This document shows positions 1-62,354 of a stretch of 64,000 bases of DNA, piece by piece (within the stretch, counting starts at the first letter, position 1; the number at the start of each line of letters is the position of its first letter). The translations under genes were made by a program, and so were the position numbers. This stretch comes from Planctomycetota bacterium (GTDB taxonomy: Bacteria > Planctomycetota > UBA1135 > UBA2386), in NCBI GenBank assembly GCA_046290465.1, contig JBKAGP010000001.1:3840001-3904000 (forward strand), read 5' to 3'. Below the pieces are notes generated by a model that worked only from the letters and a program-made list of their open reading frames with translations, was not told the DNA's origin and did no database searches.

Positions 1-69
1 CGATGCCGCTCCCCTCGCCCGACCCGCACGGGTCGCGGTCGCACCCCCTACTTCCAGGTATCCACAACT

Positions 70-1749
70 ATGCTCAGCACTACTCTGCTCAACGTTCTCG
101 CCTTCCTGCCCCAGGGCGGCCAGGGCGCCTCGACGGCCCCGGTCGTCATCAACGAGTTCAGCTACGACGATTCGAGCGGCGACGACTTCGAGTTCGTCGA
201 GCTCTACAACCGCAGCGCCGCGCCGGTCGATCTCAGCAACTGGTCGCTGGTCGGCGACGACTCGAACGGCGTCAACTTCACCGAGGTCCTGCCGGCCGGC
301 ACGATCCTGAACCCGGGCGACTACCTCGTCATCGGCGACGCCAACGTCCCGAACGTCGACATCGTGCGCGCGTCGGGCTTCCTGCAGAACAGCGACGAGT
401 CGATCACCCTGTTCGACGACTCGCAGAACCTCATCGACACGCTGATCTACGAGTCGAACAAGAGCGTCTTCAACGCCACTCTGGTCGAAGGCGAAGGCCT
501 GTGGGGCAACTTCATGCTGGTCGAGGGCAACGAGACCACCTGGTCGCGCTTCCGTGACGGCTTCGACTCGAACGACAACGGCAACGACTTCCGTCTGCAG
601 CCGTGGTCGCCGGGCACGAGCAACAACCTCCCCTACCAGCCGCAGGTCGTCGAGGCCTTCGACGGCCTGACGGTCGGCGCCGACGTGCCCGGCTGGGGCA
701 GCTCGTTCGTCAACCCGCGCGTCATCGACCCGACGCTGATCGACGGCAACAACCCCAACGCCATCCCGGTGTCGCCGCAGGGCGCCAACGCCGGCATCCT
801 CTGGGATCCGTCGGGCGGCGGCGACCACGGCATGCTGATCGCCGATCCGGGCAAGAACGGCAGCTTCGAGGCCTACGTCTACATCGCCTCGGCGCAGCTC
901 CCGGTCACCGAACTGGAGATGTGGTCGGTCGGCTTCGGCACGTCCGGCACCTTCTACAACTTCCCCGACCCGACCGCCGCGCTCGGCTTCACCGCCAACG
1001 GCAACACCGGCGTCACCTGGACGTTCGTCCGTGACGAGTTCGGCGCCAACATCTACCTGATCGACCACAACAACGGCGGCCTCGGCGGCAACGCGATCAG
1101 CAACGCCACCGTCATCGGCACCGTGGCGATCGCCTCGGGCGTCAACGACGGCTGGCAGCGCCTGCGCCTCGAGATCAACGGCGGCAACGTCACGGCCCGC
1201 TTCGGCGGCACCTATGGCGTCGCCGACGGCACGGTGTTCACGACCACGGTCGACGACATCGACCGCGGCCTCTACGCCAGCTACCGCGAAGGCCTGACGG
1301 TCAACGCCGACGCCCGCCCGTTCACGTGGGACCTGATGACGTTCACGAGCGAAGGCTCGGCGCGCGCCACCGCCTACGGCGTCGGCTGCGACAACCTGAC
1401 CCTGACGACGACCGGCGCCCCGACGATCGGCAACAACACGTTCTCGCTCGAGGTCAACAACGTCGGTGCGGTCCCGATCGCGCTGGTCGGCTTCGGCACG
1501 ACGGCCGTCAACCCGGGCCTCGACCTGACCGCCGTCGGCATGGCCGGCTGCTTCGGCTACACGTCGCTCGACATCGGCCTGTTCCAGACCTCGCCGGTCG
1601 TCGCCGGCACCGGCTCGCTGCCGCTGCCGATCCCGAACTCGGCCACGTTCATCGGCTCGACGTTCTCGGCGCAAGGCGTCGCCTTCTCGCCGACCACGTC
1701 GCTCGGCCTGTCGTCGTCGAACGGCATCGACATGTTCTTCGGCCTCTAG
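70..1749 (+). CDS. Secreted lamin-tail-domain (LTD) protein with conserved C-terminal tail domain
   Basis: 559-aa ORF with strong GC3 bias. N-terminal VVINEFSYD...FEFVELYN...VDLSNWSL...LQNSDESITL is typical of LTD. The C-terminal domain is shared with the ELWxxDGT protein at 14710-17754. Confidence 0.8.
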   Translation: MLSTTLLNVLAFLPQGGQGASTAPVVINEFSYDDSSGDDFEFVELYNRSAAPVDLSNWSLVGDDSNGVNFTEVLPAGTILNPGDYLVIGDANVPNVDIVRASGFLQNSDESITLFDDSQNLIDTLIYESNKSVFNATLVEGEGLWGNFMLVEGNETTWSRFRDGFDSNDNGNDFRLQPWSPGTSNNLPYQPQVVEAFDGLTVGADVPGWGSSFVNPRVIDPTLIDGNNPNAIPVSPQGANAGILWDPSGGGDHGMLIADPGKNGSFEAYVYIASAQLPVTELEMWSVGFGTSGTFYNFPDPTAALGFTANGNTGVTWTFVRDEFGANIYLIDHNNGGLGGNAISNATVIGTVAIASGVNDGWQRLRLEINGGNVTARFGGTYGVADGTVFTTTVDDIDRGLYASYREGLTVNADARPFTWDLMTFTSEGSARATAYGVGCDNLTLTTTGAPTIGNNTFSLEVNNVGAVPIALVGFGTTAVNPGLDLTAVGMAGCFGYTSLDIGLFQTSPVVAGTGSLPLPIPNSATFIGSTFSAQGVAFSPTTSLGLSSSNGIDMFFGL

Positions 1750-14709: not shown

Positions 14710-17700
14710 CTACAGCCCCAGCTGCACCTGCAGGCCGCCGCTGACCACGAAGTCGTTGAGGAACGGACCGTTGCCCGGGTCGAACGCGGCGAACTGGAAG
14801 AACAGGTTGTAGCCGATCAGGTTGGTGTCGTTGGGGATCGGCAGCGGGCTCGCGCCGAGGCCGTTGGCGTCGGTCAGCACCGCCGGCTGCAGCACGTACG
14901 GGATGTCGATGTAGAGGCGGCAACCGCCGCCGATGTTGATGTTGTTGGAGCCCTCCGACACCGCTGGCACGGCGAGCGTCAGCGGCAGCGTGTTGGCGAC
15001 CGTCACCGCGAACGCGCCGTTGCCGATCGTCGGCAGGCTGTTGGAGCCGACCACGGGATCGCCGGCGGTGCCACCGCACGCGTTACCGTAGGGCAGCGTG
15101 AACGCGAGGCCCGCGACCGCCGGGTCGTAGACCCACGGCTCGAGGCCGTTGACGCCCTCGTCCGCGGCGAAGAACACCCGCGCGCCGATCGGCGTGAACT
15201 CCTCCATCGTGACCGCGCCGTAGCCGTTGCCGCCGAAGTTGGTGATCTGGCGCGTGTTCGTCGACGTGCCGTCCGACAGCCACAGCTGCAGGCCGTGCTC
15301 GAGGTCGCTCGCCGCGAACAGCACCTGCGTGCCGCCGAGCGCCGGCACCAGCGTGCCCTCGATCGGCCCCTGCGCCGCACCTGGCGCGATGTCCTTCAGC
15401 AGCACCTCGCCGCCGATCGTGCCGTCGCTGTGCCACAGCTCGAGGCCCGCGCCGTTGCCGTCGTCGTGCAGGAAGAACACGCCGCTGGCCGTCGCCGTCA
15501 GGTCGCGGTACGGGTTGAGCACGCCGCTGACGCTGGCGGTCAGCTGCAGCGTTCCGCCATTGGTGCCGTCGCTGACCCAGACCTGCTCCCCGGCCGCCGA
15601 GCTGCCGGTCGCGGTCATGTAGAGCAGACCGTTGGCGACCTGCAGTTCGCGCAGCGCCGAACCGGCGATGCCCGGCCGGATGTCCTTGACCAGCACGGTG
15701 CCGGCCTGGGTGCCGTCACTCTTCCACAGCTCGGTGCCGGTGCCGGTCTGCGATGCCGAGAAGTAGAGCTCGCCGTTGTAGGCGACCAACTCCGACGGAT
15801 CCGAGCTGCCCGAGCCGGCGCGGATGTCGGCGACCTGGTAGGTGCCGGCGCTGGTGCCGTCGGTCGCCCACAGCTCGCGGCCGGTGACGCTGTCGTTGGC
15901 GGTGAAGAACGCGAGGCCGCCGACCACGGTGAAGTTCTCGCCGAACAGCAGGAACGAACCGCTGGTCGGATGGATGTCCATCAGTTCGAAGGTGCCCGCC
16001 GCGGTGCCGTCGCTGACCCACGGCTCGCGGCCGTTGCCGTCGATCGCCGAGAACAGCGCCAGGTTGCCGAACCCGGTGATCGCCCGCGGCGACAGGCCGT
16101 TGAACGTGACCTGCACGGTGCCCGCCGCGGTGCCGTCGGTGCGGTAGAGGTTGCTGCCGGACGCGTTGGTGTTGGCCTCGAACCAGACCTCGCCGTTGAT
16201 CTCCGCGGCGTCGTCGACGTCGCTGCCGAGCGACGTGCCGTTGATGTCGACGATCAGGGCCGTGCTCGCGACCGTGCCGTCGGTGAGGTGCGGCTCGCGA
16301 CCGACGCTGTCGGCGTTGGCGACGAAGAACACGTCGCTGCCGAGCGCGGTGAACTCGTCCGGGGACGAGTTGGAGACGTTGGGGGCAAGGTCGTCGAGCA
16401 GCACCGTGCCGAGCGCCGTGCCGTCGCTGAAGCACGGCTCGAAGGTGCCTGCGCCGAAGCTGCCGCGGAACAGCAGGCCGTTGCCGAACGCCGTCAGGCC
16501 GATCGCGTTGAGGCCGCCGGTGCCGGGGACGATGTCTTCGAGCAGAAACGTGCCGGCCGCGGTGCCGTCGGTGCGGTAGAGCTCGTTGCCGGTGACGCCG
16601 TCGCTGGCCGTGAACCAGACCTCACCGCCGACCACCGTCAGGTCGTCGACGCCGCCGCTCAGCGAACCCGGCCGGACGTCGACCAGTTCGACGGTGCCGG
16701 CGACGGTGCCGTCGCTGATCCACAGCTCGCGGCCGTTGGGCGAGTCCATCGAGAACAGCACCTGGCCGTTCCACGGCACGAACGCGCGCGGGCCGCTGTT
16801 GGGCGTGCCCGGGTCGAAGTCGCCGAGCATCATCGTGCCGGCCGGCGTGCCGTCGGTGACGTAGAGCTCGCGGCCGGTGCCGGTGACGTCCGCGGTGAAC
16901 AGCGCCAGCGCGCCGAACGCGGTGAAGTCCTCCGGGTTGGAGTCGTCGGTGCCGATCTCGAGGTCGGCCAGCTGGAACGTTCCTGCGGCGGTGCCGTCAC
17001 TGACGTAGGGCTCCCAGCCGTCGGCGACGTCGCACGCGAACAGCAGCTGGTTGCCGAACGGCGCGAACTGCCGGAACGACGAGCCGGCGCTGCCGGGCGT
17101 CAGGTCGGCGACCAGCATCGTGCCGGCCGCGGTGCCATCGCTGACGTAGAGCTCGTTGCCGACGCCCGACACGTTGGCGTTGAAGTAGAGGCTGCCGCCG
17201 ACGACCGTCAGGTTGTCCGGCGACGAACCGCTGATGCCGGGGCGCAGGTCGACGAGAACCTGCGTCCCGGCTTCGGTGCCGTCCGACACCATCAGCTCGA
17301 GACCGACCGCGGGGTCGATCGCGACGAAGTACAGCAACCCGTTGAACGCGGTCAGGTCGCTGATGCTCGAGCTGCTGGTCCCCGGCCGCACGTCCTTGAC
17401 GAGCACGGTGCCCGCGACGGTGCCGTCGGTCTTCCACAGCTCGAAGCCGAGTCCCGGGACGTTGGCCGCGAAGAACACCTCCGAGCCGATCACCGTGAAC
17501 TCCTTCGGGTTGCTGCTACCCGACGGCATCAGATCCTTGAGCAGGAACGTGCCGGCCGGGGTGCCGTCCGTGACGTACGGCTCGCTTCCGAACTGACCGC
17601 CACCGTCGAACACCGCGATGCCGCCGGCGACGTAGAACGGATCGAGTCCGCTCGACGGCTGGCTGCCGCTGCTGGTGCTGAGGTTCCCGACGAGACTCTG

Positions 17701-17754
17701 CGCAGAAGCGAAAGCACAGAGGGCGAGGGTCGTGAGGATGAGGCGGGCGTTCAT
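14710..17754 (-). CDS. Secreted ELWxxDGT-repeat protein with conserved C-terminal tail domain
   Basis: Signal peptide (AFASAQ). About 17 E(L/P)xxxDGT repeats. The C-terminal ~125 aa resemble the tail of the LTD protein. Confidence 0.93.
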   Translation of the reverse strand: MNARLILTTLALCAFASAQSLVGNLSTSSGSQPSSGLDPFYVAGGIAVFDGGGQFGSEPYVTDGTPAGTFLLKDLMPSGSSNPKEFTVIGSEVFFAANVPGLGFELWKTDGTVAGTVLVKDVRPGTSSSSISDLTAFNGLLYFVAIDPAVGLELMVSDGTEAGTQVLVDLRPGISGSSPDNLTVVGGSLYFNANVSGVGNELYVSDGTAAGTMLVADLTPGSAGSSFRQFAPFGNQLLFACDVADGWEPYVSDGTAAGTFQLADLEIGTDDSNPEDFTAFGALALFTADVTGTGRELYVTDGTPAGTMMLGDFDPGTPNSGPRAFVPWNGQVLFSMDSPNGRELWISDGTVAGTVELVDVRPGSLSGGVDDLTVVGGEVWFTASDGVTGNELYRTDGTAAGTFLLEDIVPGTGGLNAIGLTAFGNGLLFRGSFGAGTFEPCFSDGTALGTVLLDDLAPNVSNSSPDEFTALGSDVFFVANADSVGREPHLTDGTVASTALIVDINGTSLGSDVDDAAEINGEVWFEANTNASGSNLYRTDGTAAGTVQVTFNGLSPRAITGFGNLALFSAIDGNGREPWVSDGTAAGTFELMDIHPTSGSFLLFGENFTVVGGLAFFTANDSVTGRELWATDGTSAGTYQVADIRAGSGSSDPSELVAYNGELYFSASQTGTGTELWKSDGTQAGTVLVKDIRPGIAGSALRELQVANGLLYMTATGSSAAGEQVWVSDGTNGGTLQLTASVSGVLNPYRDLTATASGVFFLHDDGNGAGLELWHSDGTIGGEVLLKDIAPGAAQGPIEGTLVPALGGTQVLFAASDLEHGLQLWLSDGTSTNTRQITNFGGNGYGAVTMEEFTPIGARVFFAADEGVNGLEPWVYDPAVAGLAFTLPYGNACGGTAGDPVVGSNSLPTIGNGAFAVTVANTLPLTLAVPAVSEGSNNINIGGGCRLYIDIPYVLQPAVLTDANGLGASPLPIPNDTNLIGYNLFFQFAAFDPGNGPFLNDFVVSGGLQVQLGL

Positions 17755-18196: not shown

Positions 18197-19060
18197 ATGA
18201 ACCGAACCGCCCTGACGTTGTCGTTCTTGTTGCTCTGCACCGGCCTGTCCGCCCAGGACCCGGACCAGCAGCAGGCTCCCCAGAAGGCTCCCGCCGAGGA
18301 CCATAAGACTGCCGCCAAGGACCAGCAGGCTCCGCAGAAGGAGCCGCCGTTCGTGTTCGAGGCCGGCACGATCCCGCTGGCAGAGCTGGTCGAGAAGTGC
18401 GGCCGCTACCTGCAGTGGAACGTGCTGATCGACGAGAACGAGTTCGCGGCGGTCGTCACCGGCGGCCGCCCGCGCGGCCGCAAGGCGCCAAAGCCCGAGG
18501 CCGACAACGACCAGCCCACCGGTCCGATCGTCGAACTGCACCTGCCGGTCGTCACCGACAAGCACGGCTGCGAGGAGATGCTCAGCAGCATCCTGTGGCG
18601 GTACGGGTTCGCGCTGATGCCGCTCGACGAACAGAAGGACGCCTACGAGGTGATCCTGCGGCAAGGGCAACGCGGCCGCGAGCTGATGATGCGCAGCCGG
18701 CAGCGCACGCCCGAACAGATCCTCGCGCGGCCGACGCTGCGCCAGTTCGTCACCACCGTCTACATGCTCAAGCACGCCAGCGCGCAGCAGGCCAACAACT
18801 CGCTGCGACCGTTCTTCGCCAGCATGAGCAGCAACTCGTTCGGGCTGGTCATCGGCAACTTCGGCAACAACGCGTCGCTGCTGCTCAGCGGCCCGCAGGA
18901 CCTCGTCGCCAACGCGCTACGGCTGCTGCAGTCGGCGGACCAACCGCCGCAGAACGTCGACCCGGTGACCCGGTCGCGGCTCAAGAAGCTCGAGGACTCC
19001 CACGAGAAGCTGCTCCGCGAACTCGAACGGCTCAAGCAGAAGGTCGACGCCGGGCAGTAG
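18197..19060 (+). CDS. Secreted protein with secretin (GspD-like) N-terminal domains and no secretin barrel
   Basis: Signal peptide. TTVYMLKHASAQQANNSLRPF...NASLLLSGPQDLVANALRLLQSAD resembles a Secretin_N repeat. C-terminal coiled coil. Confidence 0.65.
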   Translation: MNRTALTLSFLLLCTGLSAQDPDQQQAPQKAPAEDHKTAAKDQQAPQKEPPFVFEAGTIPLAELVEKCGRYLQWNVLIDENEFAAVVTGGRPRGRKAPKPEADNDQPTGPIVELHLPVVTDKHGCEEMLSSILWRYGFALMPLDEQKDAYEVILRQGQRGRELMMRSRQRTPEQILARPTLRQFVTTVYMLKHASAQQANNSLRPFFASMSSNSFGLVIGNFGNNASLLLSGPQDLVANALRLLQSADQPPQNVDPVTRSRLKKLEDSHEKLLRELERLKQKVDAGQ

Positions 19061-29538: not shown

Positions 29539-29826
29539 TTACTGGACCACGACCCGGCAGGTGGTGCGGCGATCGCCGCGGCCGATCCAGATGCGCAGCA
29601 CGCTGCCGGAAGGTGCCGCCGGCACCTCGAGCGTCACGCGCCCGTTCGGCGCGACGAGCCGCCAGCGCACGTGGCGGCTGCCTTCGACGGCGTAGCAGAC
29701 GCGCATCGCGCCCGGCCCGACGTCGACGACGATCGCGGCACCGGCCGGGGCGCTCGCCGGCGCGCGGATCTGGGCACCGAGCGAGCCGGCCAGCAGCAGC
29801 GCGACGACAACAGACGCGCACCTCAT
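29539..29826 (-). CDS. Small secreted hypothetical protein
   Basis: [19 protein letters not shown] signal-like start, overlapping the upstream stop (ATGA). About 95 aa. Confidence 0.55.
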
Positions 29827-30914
29827 TGGTGTTCGAGGCGCAGCACGTGCGCGGTGTGGGCCGCAGCGTGACCTTCCGCATCGAGCGGGTGGCCGTAGAC
29901 GGTCGCCATGTCGAGCGACGGCAGCGTCGCGGCGATCACGCCGCGGGTCGCGTTGCTGGCCGCGACCTGCGCGAGGTCGAACCACTGCGCCGACAGCGAC
30001 GCGCCGCACAGGGCGGGATCGTCGGGCACCCACACGTCGAGCCAGGCCTCGCCGCCGAACGGCTGCTCCTCGGGCTCGGGCATCGGCGTGAACACCGCCG
30101 GCAGCACGACGTGCAACGACCCGAGGTGCAGCGCGCAGCCGGGCCCGGCCAGCATCGACGCCGGCAGGCCGAGCGCCGCCAGCGGAACGGGTGCGGCACC
30201 GAGCGTGCCGAACGCGGCCAGCGCGACGCCGCCGGGGGTGCCGTTGGCGAAGAACTGCGTGTGGCCGCCGGCGACGAATCCGACCGCCGCGCTCCACTCC
30301 CCGTTGGCGCCGCCGTAGGCACCGCAACCGCTGCCGACCGACGTCGCGCGGGTCTGGCTCGCCAGGCTCTCGGCGTCGGCCAGCCACCACACCGCCCCGG
30401 TGATCGGCGCGCCGACGACGTCGACGCACAGCGTCCCGCCGGTGTAGACGAACGGCGTCTGCAGGTCGACGCGCACCGTGTTGTCGCTGTCCCACGCGAC
30501 CTGTGGGCCGGGCTCGGCCGGCGATGCGGGCGCGTGCAGCACGCCGGCGAACACCTGCACGGCGTCGGCGCCGACGTGGCTCGCGAACGTCGTCGACGTC
30601 TGCAGCGGCGAACGCGGCGACGTCGACATCGTGACGGTGACCTGGGCCGCGCCGGCCGGATAGGCCTCGCCGTCTGCGCTGCGCCGAAGTTCGAACGCGG
30701 TGATCGCGTGTCCGAGCAGGCTGGCGAGGTGGCTCGGGCCGACCAGCGTCTGCACGCGCATCGGGCCGCCGATGCCGGCCACCGGCAGGTGGCGGACCGC
30801 GTCGAGATCGGAGAAGGCGGCCGGAACGACCGTTTGCTGTTGGGCTTGCGCGGCCGCGGCCATCGCGGCGGCGATCATCGCGGCGGTCGCGCCGCGCGGG
30901 AGAACCAGTTGCAT
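29823..30914 (-). CDS. Secreted hypothetical protein with a divergent copy of the tail domain
   Basis: Signal peptide (AAAQAQ). VGSGC...PGCALH...[16 protein letters not shown]...SNA. Confidence 0.75.
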
Positions 30915-60569: not shown

Positions 60570-62354
60570 TCAGAGCAGGATCGACGGGATCTCCAGCGGT
60601 GCCGCCCCGACGGGATCGGTCTGCTGGCCCGTCAGGTCCTCGGTCGGCTCGTAGCCACCCAGGTATCGGCTCGAGTTGCCACTGTTCTGGTTGGGGTGCA
60701 GGATCGTCTCGAGCCCCGCGACCACCAGCTCGCCCCAGTTGGCAACCACGTTGGAGAACGGCTTGATCAGCCAGAGGCTGCCGTTCGCGTCCATCATGTC
60801 GGCGATCAGCACGCTGGCCAGGACCTCCCCGGGGTGGCGCGTGAAGCGGCCGAGCACCGACTTCGACGCAAAGCCGTCGTTGCCGTTGTCGACCAGCGTG
60901 AACTCGAGCAGGCGACCGACGATCGTGCCGTTCTGCTCCAGCGGCACCGGGATCATCATGTCGAAGGTGCCGCCGCTCGCACCCGTCGGCAGGTCGGCGT
61001 AGTAGGTCGTCACCGACGACGTGTCGACGACGTCGCCCTGCATGCCGTACTGGTAGCAGCGGACCTCCATCTGGTCGTTGAGGCCCGTCGGCAGGTCGAA
61101 GCGAACGATCAACGCCGCGTGGTTCTGCGGAAACTGCCACGAGGTCAGGTAGGCGGGGTCGGTGACCAGGCCGCGAATCTCCGGCGAGGACAGCGTCGGC
61201 ACCGGCGCCTTCGCAAACAGCTGACCCGTGTGGTCGTGCATCTGCTCCGCGAAGTCCGCCACCACCACCAGCTGCTCCGAGCCGTCGGCCTGCAGCACCA
61301 GGTCGAGTTCGCCGTCGCGATCGATGTCGTCGAGGACCGACGCCGTGTGCGACGGCGTCGCCGACGGGTCGTGCTTGCGCAGGTAATAGCCGTTCTGCCA
61401 GGTCGGGCCGTTGGCCGTGCCGATCATGACGCGCTCGAGGTGGTCCGTGCACGAGACCACGACATCGCTGTAGGCGTCGTCGGTCAGCTGCGCCGCGACG
61501 ATGCCGTTGGGGATGCTCGGCAGCAGGAACGTCGGCGAGTCCCACGTGGTGGTCGAACCCGCCTGCCAGGTCCGCGCGAACCACTGCCCGCTGCCGGTCG
61601 GGATCACCGCGGTCACCCCCGGCGTGCCGCCCTGGTCGATCGCGCACAGCGAGCCGCGGCCGAACACCGGGAAGGCCTGCGACGCGAGCGCGTTGCCGAG
61701 GAAGTCGAGCACGAAGATGCCGGCAGAGCTCAGCACGACGATCTCAGGCATGCCGCCGGCGACCCAGTCGACCGTCGCGACGTCCCAGACGGTGGTGTTG
61801 GCCGGCGTCGGGATGCGCGGGCCGGGCACGATCGTGTCGTCGGCCATGTGCACGCCGCCCTGCACCCAGGAATCGGTGAACGCGACGAAGTGGTTCTCCG
61901 GGCCGCCCGCCGTGTGGTGCACACCCGAACGGATCTGGACCGCGCCGGCGTAGGCCGCCTCGCCCCCCGCCACCGACACGAACTGGCCGTTGTCGTAGCG
62001 CCAGAGGTCGACGCCGCCCGCCACCACCGCGGCCACCCGGTCGCTGGCCGTGCCGTCGTGGTTGGGCAGCGGGGCCAGCTGCCGCGCGCTCGGCAGCGCC
62101 GTCGCCGCCAGCGCGGCCGGCGTCCCGACCGCGGCGAAGTGGTCGAACTGCAGCGGCTGGAACGACAGGTAGGCCTGGCCTGCGCGCATCAGCAGCACCG
62201 AGCGCCCGACGTGGTCGGGCACGTGCTGGCCAGCCACGAGCGAGGCGCTCACCCCGGTCATCGAGGCGGGCCAGTCACGTTCGGTGCGGTAGAACTGGAG
62301 CTCCTGGGAGACCAGAGGAGCAGCGAGGATCAGGGGCAGCAGGAGCTTCATCAT
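60570..62354 (-). CDS. Secreted protein with degenerate FG-GAP/VCBS-like repeats
   Basis: Signal peptide MKLLLPLILAAPLVSQ. DWVAGGMPEIVV, QLTDDAYSDVVV, DIDRDGELDLVL. Confidence 0.75.
   Translation of the reverse strand: MMKLLLPLILAAPLVSQELQFYRTERDWPASMTGVSASLVAGQHVPDHVGRSVLLMRAGQAYLSFQPLQFDHFAAVGTPAALAATALPSARQLAPLPNHDGTASDRVAAVVAGGVDLWRYDNGQFVSVAGGEAAYAGAVQIRSGVHHTAGGPENHFVAFTDSWVQGGVHMADDTIVPGPRIPTPANTTVWDVATVDWVAGGMPEIVVLSSAGIFVLDFLGNALASQAFPVFGRGSLCAIDQGGTPGVTAVIPTGSGQWFARTWQAGSTTTWDSPTFLLPSIPNGIVAAQLTDDAYSDVVVSCTDHLERVMIGTANGPTWQNGYYLRKHDPSATPSHTASVLDDIDRDGELDLVLQADGSEQLVVVADFAEQMHDHTGQLFAKAPVPTLSSPEIRGLVTDPAYLTSWQFPQNHAALIVRFDLPTGLNDQMEVRCYQYGMQGDVVDTSSVTTYYADLPTGASGGTFDMMIPVPLEQNGTIVGRLLEFTLVDNGNDGFASKSVLGRFTRHPGEVLASVLIADMMDANGSLWLIKPFSNVVANWGELVVAGLETILHPNQNSGNSSRYLGGYEPTEDLTGQQTDPVGAAPLEIPSILL

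Follow-up and report, generated by a model that had tools for sequence, protein, structure and literature searches.

A portable Ig-like domain at the ends of many exported planctomycete proteins: a candidate surface anchor

Two genes within a 64,000-nucleotide stretch of a Planctomycetota genome (contig JBKAGP010000001.1; the whole stretch is here called the window) encode exported proteins whose bodies are unrelated but whose last ~125 residues are alike. Is this shared tail a sorting signal of a known type, or a part that stays on its carriers and serves them at the cell surface? A third carrier in the window, in which the domain is not at the end, bears on the answer. The features, numbered within the window, are as follows.

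70..1749, + strand: 559-aa exported LTD protein, with signal peptide, LTD, an unnamed middle and a C-terminal domain copy
1363..1746, + strand: domain copy 1, in the LTD protein; 128 aa modelled, core from 1375
14710..17754, − strand: 1014-aa exported ELWxxDGT-repeat protein, signal peptide ending ASA/Q (the slash marks the cleavage site), C-terminal domain copy
14713..15102, − strand: domain copy 2, in the ELWxxDGT protein; core to 15090
29823..30914, − strand: third carrier, a 363-aa exported protein, its domain predicted to lie within a jelly-roll (CBM/PHR-like) domain
29928..30350, − strand: domain copy 3, inserted, at about mature residues 165-305; Ig-like structural matches cover model residues 173-308 only
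29826..29909, − strand: C-terminal strands 3′ of copy 3 (AF2 strands 312-317 and 334-338), predicted to complete the N-terminal jelly roll

Both of the first two open reading frames, of 559 and 1014 aa, are as an earlier sequence-only reading gave them. All elements of the motif it quoted are present in both tails, and positions 1375 and 15090 mark the Tyr of YGxxC. When the whole proteins are compared, BLASTP gives one significant segment, the tail, with 36% identity across 94 aa (E=4e-6). In the 62-tail alignment described below (A1) copies 1 and 2 are 30% identical, and copy 1 is 63% identical to the tail of another protein of the genome (G000 2423879-2425501; G000 denotes this genome) whose passenger is unrelated. 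The LTD protein has Pfam LTD at residues 20-127 and a short, atypical signal peptide with no basic n-region and an LP/Q site, the same in four orthologues; its counterpart has 18 ELWxxDGT repeats (TIGR04534). Just before the start of the window, and head to head with the LTD gene, is an 837-aa carrier (G000 3837287-3839800, − strand) that neighbours a short gene resembling a sigma factor and a gene for a kinase-like protein of 1082 aa, both labelled by eye.

The genome is a single contig of 6.59 Mb, 94% complete, whose 5,099 genes were called with our own dicodon model and not with Prodigal; signal peptides, lipoboxes and gene starts were likewise assigned by heuristics of our own in place of SignalP or Prodigal, with some starts called wrongly. 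An iterated profile built from the two tails found 168 proteins among 51,421 six-frame ORFs at iE<1e-4, and its refined form found 230 carriers among the called genes at iE<0.01. Reversed decoys gave no match at either threshold, so the similarity of the tails is not due to chance, and their number lies within the tens to hundreds anticipated for a genome-wide search. The domain's share of G000 is 4.5% of called genes and 6.4% of coding residues. By a simple and noisy heuristic a signal peptide is present in 174 of 221 carriers of at least 150 aa, versus 1,459 of 4,173 other proteins.

One tail alone finds matches in 29 of 31 related genomes. With the 62-tail alignment, 42 of 201 genomes sampled across Planctomycetota are positive (G000, 39 with from 3 to at least 21 matches each, and 2 with a single match) and 159 have none, which agrees with the suggestion of use at the level of lineages. 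The same profile matches 25,247 of 1.84 billion metagenomic cluster representatives (clusters at 50% identity). The ESM Atlas gave clusters that are unnamed and mostly from Planctomycetota. Though portable surface-attachment modules are known as a kind, no earlier description of this domain family was found in the open-access literature, and the word ‘secret’ is absent from the available portion of a preprint on Saltatorellota (10.1101/817700). The shared tail is a real and large domain family that lacks a curated model; such a model would single out the probable surface proteins of lineages that make up about one fifth (42/201) of the sampled Planctomycetota genomes. Frequent recent shuffling was considered and set aside, since only 2 of 48 tail pairs with at least 45% identity have unrelated passengers.

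Neither tail has a sequence match in Pfam, NCBIfam or the PDB, the sole PDB row being a cohesin at a non-significant E=0.54. When 62 members were compared with Pfam and NCBIfam, at most 1-2 matched any one model, at E 0.01-0.1. The AlphaFold2 model of the 128-aa domain (pLDDT 95) is all-beta with ten strands; for copy 1 these form an Ig-like sandwich with a Pro/Leu hairpin-helix flap whose end is the second Cys. Structure searching returned generic Ig folds, with immune-receptor Ig domains at Z 8.2-8.6 (rmsd ~3, 87-93 residues aligned). The T9SS CTD, cohesin and the ML domain are all missing from the VIA top 50, which for a top 50 does not amount to exclusion, and Foldseek has no match at E<=0.001. 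Its top rows are ML-domain proteins, at a level that is not significant (best E 0.007, TM 0.39, rmsd 12.7). The ML-domain lipid binders (GM2 activator, NPC2, MD-1) are, like the present domain, beta-sandwiches with apolar surfaces and disulfides, but the similarity does not reach significance in Foldseek (E>=0.007, TM<=0.40) and they do not figure among the VIA top 50. Two statements of the sequence-only reading hold: no known sorting domain is matched in Pfam, NCBIfam or PDB sequences, the fold being generically Ig-like, and there is no transmembrane segment plus basic cluster, as seen in the C-termini, a domain Lys+Arg (K+R) content of 2.5% and the all-beta model.

The most conserved features of the modelled tail are Gly23, Pro91, Gly98, Gln104 and the PLPxDLxxxGxPGC flap; S-N-G near the domain end is also conserved. 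The two Cys said to be conserved are indeed in both window tails, but both are present in only 105 of the 230 carriers, with one in 36 and neither in 89, and the last figure rules out a universal disulfide. Since the two co-vary (odds ratio 38) yet 89 carriers have neither, the proposed bond is best regarded as implied where the pair occurs and as optional overall. The domain is unusually apolar (GRAVY +0.46, where passengers have −0.01 and the remaining exported proteins −0.37). In the model, strands 13-17 and 28-32 have an alternating polar face, whereas strands 39-45 and 100-108 are apolar on both faces, which suggests either a covered pocket or an exposed greasy face.

Where the domain stands in its carriers is informative. 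In G000, 195 copies are C-terminal, 13 are terminal with an extension of 10-45 aa, 8 N-terminal, 12 standalone and 2 internal; the domain ends within 8 residues of the stop in 206 of 230 carriers. Up to 12 standalone copies (an example is G000 6134578-6134976) is an upper figure: inspection by eye shows a clear signal peptide plus domain in about 7, and the rest may be fragments. There is one copy per protein in all 229 scored G000 proteins and in all 150 of the global top hits. Those best 150 of the 25,247 global matches comprise 146 terminal, 3 N-terminal and 1 extended, and of 20 loci, each from a different further genome and 19 of them from outside the order, 18 are terminal and 2 N-terminal, with one of the 20 proteins having a second, weaker copy. 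In 9 aligned extended carriers, including the third carrier of the window, the passenger's last two strands come after the domain, while in paralogues with a terminal domain they come before it (two further extended carriers in the same alignment are Kelch proteins whose extensions are probably spurious). The inserted architecture is matched in 31 of 40 family genomes. In the AF2 model of the third carrier (pLDDT 95, pTM 0.89) single jelly-roll chains of 130-161 aa align over 1..339 or 26..339 and Ig chains only to residues 173-308, from which the domain is predicted to sit in a jelly-roll loop. Placement at the C-terminus, taken at first to be the rule, is thus not obligate, given the 8 N-terminal, 2 internal, up to 12 standalone and 9 aligned inserted copies.

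This matters for one family of explanations, in which the domain is a C-terminal signal cut off as in T9SS or sortase systems or, with no sorting role at all, a periplasmic stalk or ligand-binding module. The 206 of 230 terminal copies, the S-N-G near the end and the Ig-like fold are what it has in its favour. Removal of the domain is unlikely in the inserted carriers because the cut would take away core strands of the jelly roll, and a cleaved terminal signal cannot be general because N-terminal, internal, standalone and inserted copies exist; nor is there a transmembrane or basic tail. The T9SS CTDs of Bacteroidota (TIGR04183/PF18962) are among the closest in manner of use, being Ig-like, single, mostly C-terminal and attached to many unrelated Sec-exported passengers, and G000 signal peptides share the Bacteroidota-like Gln at +1. 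They are compact 3+4 sandwiches of seven strands and 70-100 aa that rely on their C-terminal end and are as a rule cut off by PorU (PMC11285876). The planctomycete domain differs in having ~125 aa, ten strands and an optional Cys pair, in being also N-terminal, standalone or inserted, and in the lack of a profile match (0 of 62 members match TIGR04183, TIGR04131 or PF18962 at E<=0.1 in the Pfam and NCBIfam searches). PorV (NF033709) has no match in G000, with a positive control in B. thetaiotaomicron; SprA (PF14349) and PorU (PF01364) also have none, but their controls were silent everywhere, and the same limit applies to the absence of a TIGR04183 match in the genome. With the analogy to cleaved T9SS-CTD or sortase-type signals failing as a general account in the inserted and N-terminal copies, and with the passenger composition described next, a cleaved signal or a module without a sorting role is very improbable.

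When the 193 terminal carriers whose passenger is of appreciable size are grouped by BLAST, 78 mutually unrelated components result, which, together with the signal peptide counts, substantiates the claim of diverse secreted passengers. Pfam annotation, applied to 24 proteins chosen from G000 and to 78 of the global top 150, names Kelch, FG-GAP, LVIVD, GSDH, Rax2, BNR, sulfatase, trypsin, PKD, CARDB, di-haem peroxidase and multiheme passengers; further propellers and cytochrome c peroxidase are also among the passengers. What the passengers share is composition: K+R is 4.7% versus 11.9% in other exported proteins, and G+S+T+N 32% versus 22%. K+R is below 6% in 153 of 192 passengers but in only 39 of 519 other exported proteins, and by eye many of the 39 have a domain-like tail themselves. 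Among domain-less non-lipoprotein homologues, 15 of 27 have K+R of 8.9-15.8% in the aligned region against 3.2-7.1% in 9 carrier counterparts, a difference which counts against a cleaved signal or a module without a sorting role; the other 12 are K+R-low as well, several of them being fragments or probable divergent carriers. Farther afield, in comparisons that have no matched control, the depletion is weaker in the best 150 global hits (median 8.1%, 22 of 91 below 6%), and K+R is at most 6% in 12 of 17 distant loci with a recognisable start. PEP-CTERM and LPXTG proteins show the same depletion of basic residues (Haft et al. 2006, PMC1569441). Gln at +1 of the signal peptide (115 of 123 carriers) is no part of a domain signal, as it occurs genome-wide (558 of 1,130 other exported proteins). 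This frequent Gln resembles the Q-rule, termed Bacteroidetes-specific in PMC5837995, the available text of which does not mention planctomycetes. A PF05096-type glutaminyl cyclase was not found in G000.

Besides the carriers, G000 has a second large class of exported proteins poor in Lys/Arg, the domain-less lipoproteins. A lipobox is present in 1 of 227 carriers versus 181 of 1,088 other signal-peptide proteins, and several passengers occur in both carrier and lipoprotein form (5 of 11 lipoprotein homologues of carriers are not K/R-poor). The clearest pair is the protein at G000 96842-98590 (signal peptide, domain, body) and the lipoprotein at 214750-216750, which lacks the domain: they are 49% identical over 429 aa and their N-termini are unrelated. 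From the 54 matches to this family, 30 loci were compared. Eight have an N-terminal domain (K+R 4.8-8.7%), 7 are domain-less lipoproteins (3 by regex and 4 by eye; K+R 4.6-6.7%), and 14 of the remaining 15 are at K+R 9.4-12.6%, two of these with lipobox-like motifs. In a midpoint-rooted tree of 28 rows (2 short rows were excluded) the clade that bears the domain (89/89) has the lipoprotein clade (100/99) as its sister, with joint support of 95/95. As read from these sequences, the tree shows one swap event, in which the domain stands where lipid and stalk stand in the lipoproteins. Lys-poor, Gly-rich lipoproteins of 870-1170 aa with Big_5 are encoded at G000 1763608-1767114, 1998181-2001621, 2521255-2524647 and 1960310-1970092; in a Big_5 relative, G000 6211433-6214564, Kelch and the domain replace the lipoprotein N-terminus.

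Because the domain occurs irrespective of position and once per protein, avoids the lipobox, changes places with a lipid anchor, goes with Lys/Arg-poor passengers, is apolar and occurs with type II secretion (T2SS) genes, it is read here as a retained, lipid-free outer-surface anchor of Sec-exported proteins that probably cross by type II secretion, a proposal with about an even chance of being right. It likely does the job of the N-terminal lipid of related lipoproteins. What the data show is how the domain is distributed and where it stands, that other anchors are excluded, and its composition and the fold predicted for it; the steps that follow are proposed on that basis. After Sec export, signal peptidase I would cut mostly at A/Q, to judge from the motifs seen. 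In the periplasm the domain would fold, with the optional disulfide, to which the co-variation points, pinning the Pro/Leu-rich flap over the apolar sheet; the outer membrane would be crossed probably via T2SS, and the uncleaved domain may then hold on non-covalently, its apolar face or its flap binding either lipid of the outer membrane or some other component of the surface. T2SS is known to localise lipoproteins to the surface (PulA, InvL; PMC12802150). The carriers resemble these T2SS surface lipoproteins in that homologous passengers occur in G000 as Lys/Arg-poor lipoproteins and T2SS genes are present, and differ in having no lipobox and a folded domain in place of lipid and stalk.

Several points tell against an anchor. 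Between 85 and 90% of copies are C-terminal, a bias that a pure anchor does not need, and the ~7 proteins of signal peptide plus domain only have nothing to anchor. The swap is one event in a midpoint-rooted tree whose domain clade is supported at 89/89 only, and both it and the lipobox exclusion fit an export tag equally well if the lipoproteins have a sorting motif of their own, as described for T2SS lipoproteins (PMC12802150). K+R depletion is weaker in the global top hits, and 12 of 27 domain-less homologues are K/R-poor.

The export tag just mentioned, a folded domain recognised for secretion, is the most serious competitor and has to be judged against the machinery. G000 has seven secretins, one of them GspD-like with GspE and GspF; GspF scores above the TIGR02120 cut-off, whereas GspE and GspD, though the best matches, stay below theirs, and GspG-like pseudopilins are encoded elsewhere. 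Besides the presence of these components, a tag would explain the single copy per protein, the strong C-terminal bias and why most of the Lys/Arg-poor non-lipoprotein secretome is marked by the domain. PelI, which we take to be T2SS cargo, is among the generic Ig/FN3 structural matches (Z 7.3). Among the T9SS CTDs, which likewise have an Ig-like fold, some stay uncleaved (PMC11285876). Against a tag, no component tracks the domain. A GspD orthologue is present in 38 of 39 domain-positive but also in 23 of 40 domain-negative genomes, and so is compatible with the domain without being specific to it (here and in the secretin, Big_5 and dockerin contrasts the related genomes are not independent, and the counts are not statistical tests). 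A second secretin operon (G000 3112103-3122083) was rejected as dedicated machinery, with full-length orthologues in 6 of 39 positives. Phylogenetic profiles were made for four candidate envelope proteins, none a protease, and among them no machinery dedicated to the domain was found. No common operon was seen by eye at the seven secretin neighbourhoods or at standalone and N-terminal carriers, and there is no Tat motif in the 230 carriers. Moreover the high apolarity and conserved flap would be unnecessary for a tag, which is rated unlikely, though well short of fanciful.

Exported proteins with the GspD N-terminal domain but no barrel are encoded at 18197-19060 (+) of the window and at G000 4589308-4590078, 4590083-4590820 and, as a lipoprotein, 5380454-5380987. 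Three of the four end in a predicted coiled coil, and they could possibly be periplasmic adaptors or decoys of T2SS. With a query too weak for distant GspDs, relatives turned up in 3 of 79 further genomes, each belonging to the same family as G000; this restricted range is a further point against a tag. AsmA-like GspN is required for T2SS lipoprotein export (PMC12802150); an AsmA-like DUF748 gene at G000 4618613-4621936 is two genes from a GspG-like pseudopilin. Two adjacent GspD-like matches occur in five other Planctomycetota genomes (G075, G080, G122, G187, G037).

A further alternative is docking, in which the domain would bind a scaffold protein or itself, dockerin/cohesin-like or as a lattice, and so build a coat of passengers. 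Copies are single as in dockerins, and standalone copies exist. None of 40 domain-positive genomes has a dockerin expansion (at least 10 matches), and 4 of 40 domain-negative ones do; the contrast is small. Elsewhere in G000 there is one weak dockerin match. The large Big_5 lipoproteins might be scaffolds. A Big_5 query finds them in 23 of 39 positive and 0 of 40 negative genomes, but it missed the other 16 positives and relatedness alone could explain the range. The cohesin sequence match mentioned above is too weak for significance, the top 50 structural matches contain no cohesin, and no tandem-repeat scaffoldin was noticed in G000. Docking is improbable on this balance.

Among other portable modules, those of SLH type are retained and serve anchoring. 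They and dockerin (PF00404) are, like the domain, portable and found at either terminus of diverse exported proteins, and are retained, as the domain likely is; there is no sequence or fold match to either, and PF00404 had no match among the 62 members in the Pfam search. PEP-CTERM, GlyGly-CTERM, MYXO-CTERM and LPXTG are likewise many-to-one tags on basic-poor, Thr/Ser/Asn-rich passengers, but theirs is a short motif, transmembrane segment and basic stretch cut by a dedicated enzyme, in contrast to a folded domain with no transmembrane segment. GlyGly- and MYXO-CTERM proteins are surface-localised by T2SS (10.1101/2023.06.07.544157). G000 has a PEP-CTERM set of its own, separate from the domain (4 matches, 2 exosortases).

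Of the two roles left side by side by the sequence-only reading, export or surface attachment, attachment appears to fit somewhat better. Anchor and export tag are not exclusive, and the sequences separate them weakly, mainly by apolarity and position independence. If anchoring without lipid or sortase is true, it would be a new mode of displaying proteins at the surface of diderm cells, and the domain could serve as a display tag; if a T2SS tag, the domain would be a rare discrete and transplantable T2SS signal with substrate recognition directly testable. A bolder and more tentative statement, to which we give less than even credence, is that the surface proteome of several uncultured lineages of Planctomycetota is built with a membrane anchor made of protein alone, a disulfide-stapled, apolar Ig domain, freely exchangeable with lipid, on ~4.5% of genes, exported folded by T2SS and never sortase-processed.

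Some carriers and their neighbours call for separate mention. The domain is at the end of ORFs that start with Ser/Thr kinase sequence in G000 (3775428-3776765) and in P0089; P0089 has an internal signal-peptide-like segment, and the G000 ORF looks frameshifted. A kinase gene is at most 2 genes away from 23 of 230 carriers versus 229 of 4,803 other genes, that is, twice as often. In the window itself, 60570-62354 (−) encodes a 594-aa Lys/Arg-poor exported protein that has neither a Pfam match nor a scored copy of the domain.
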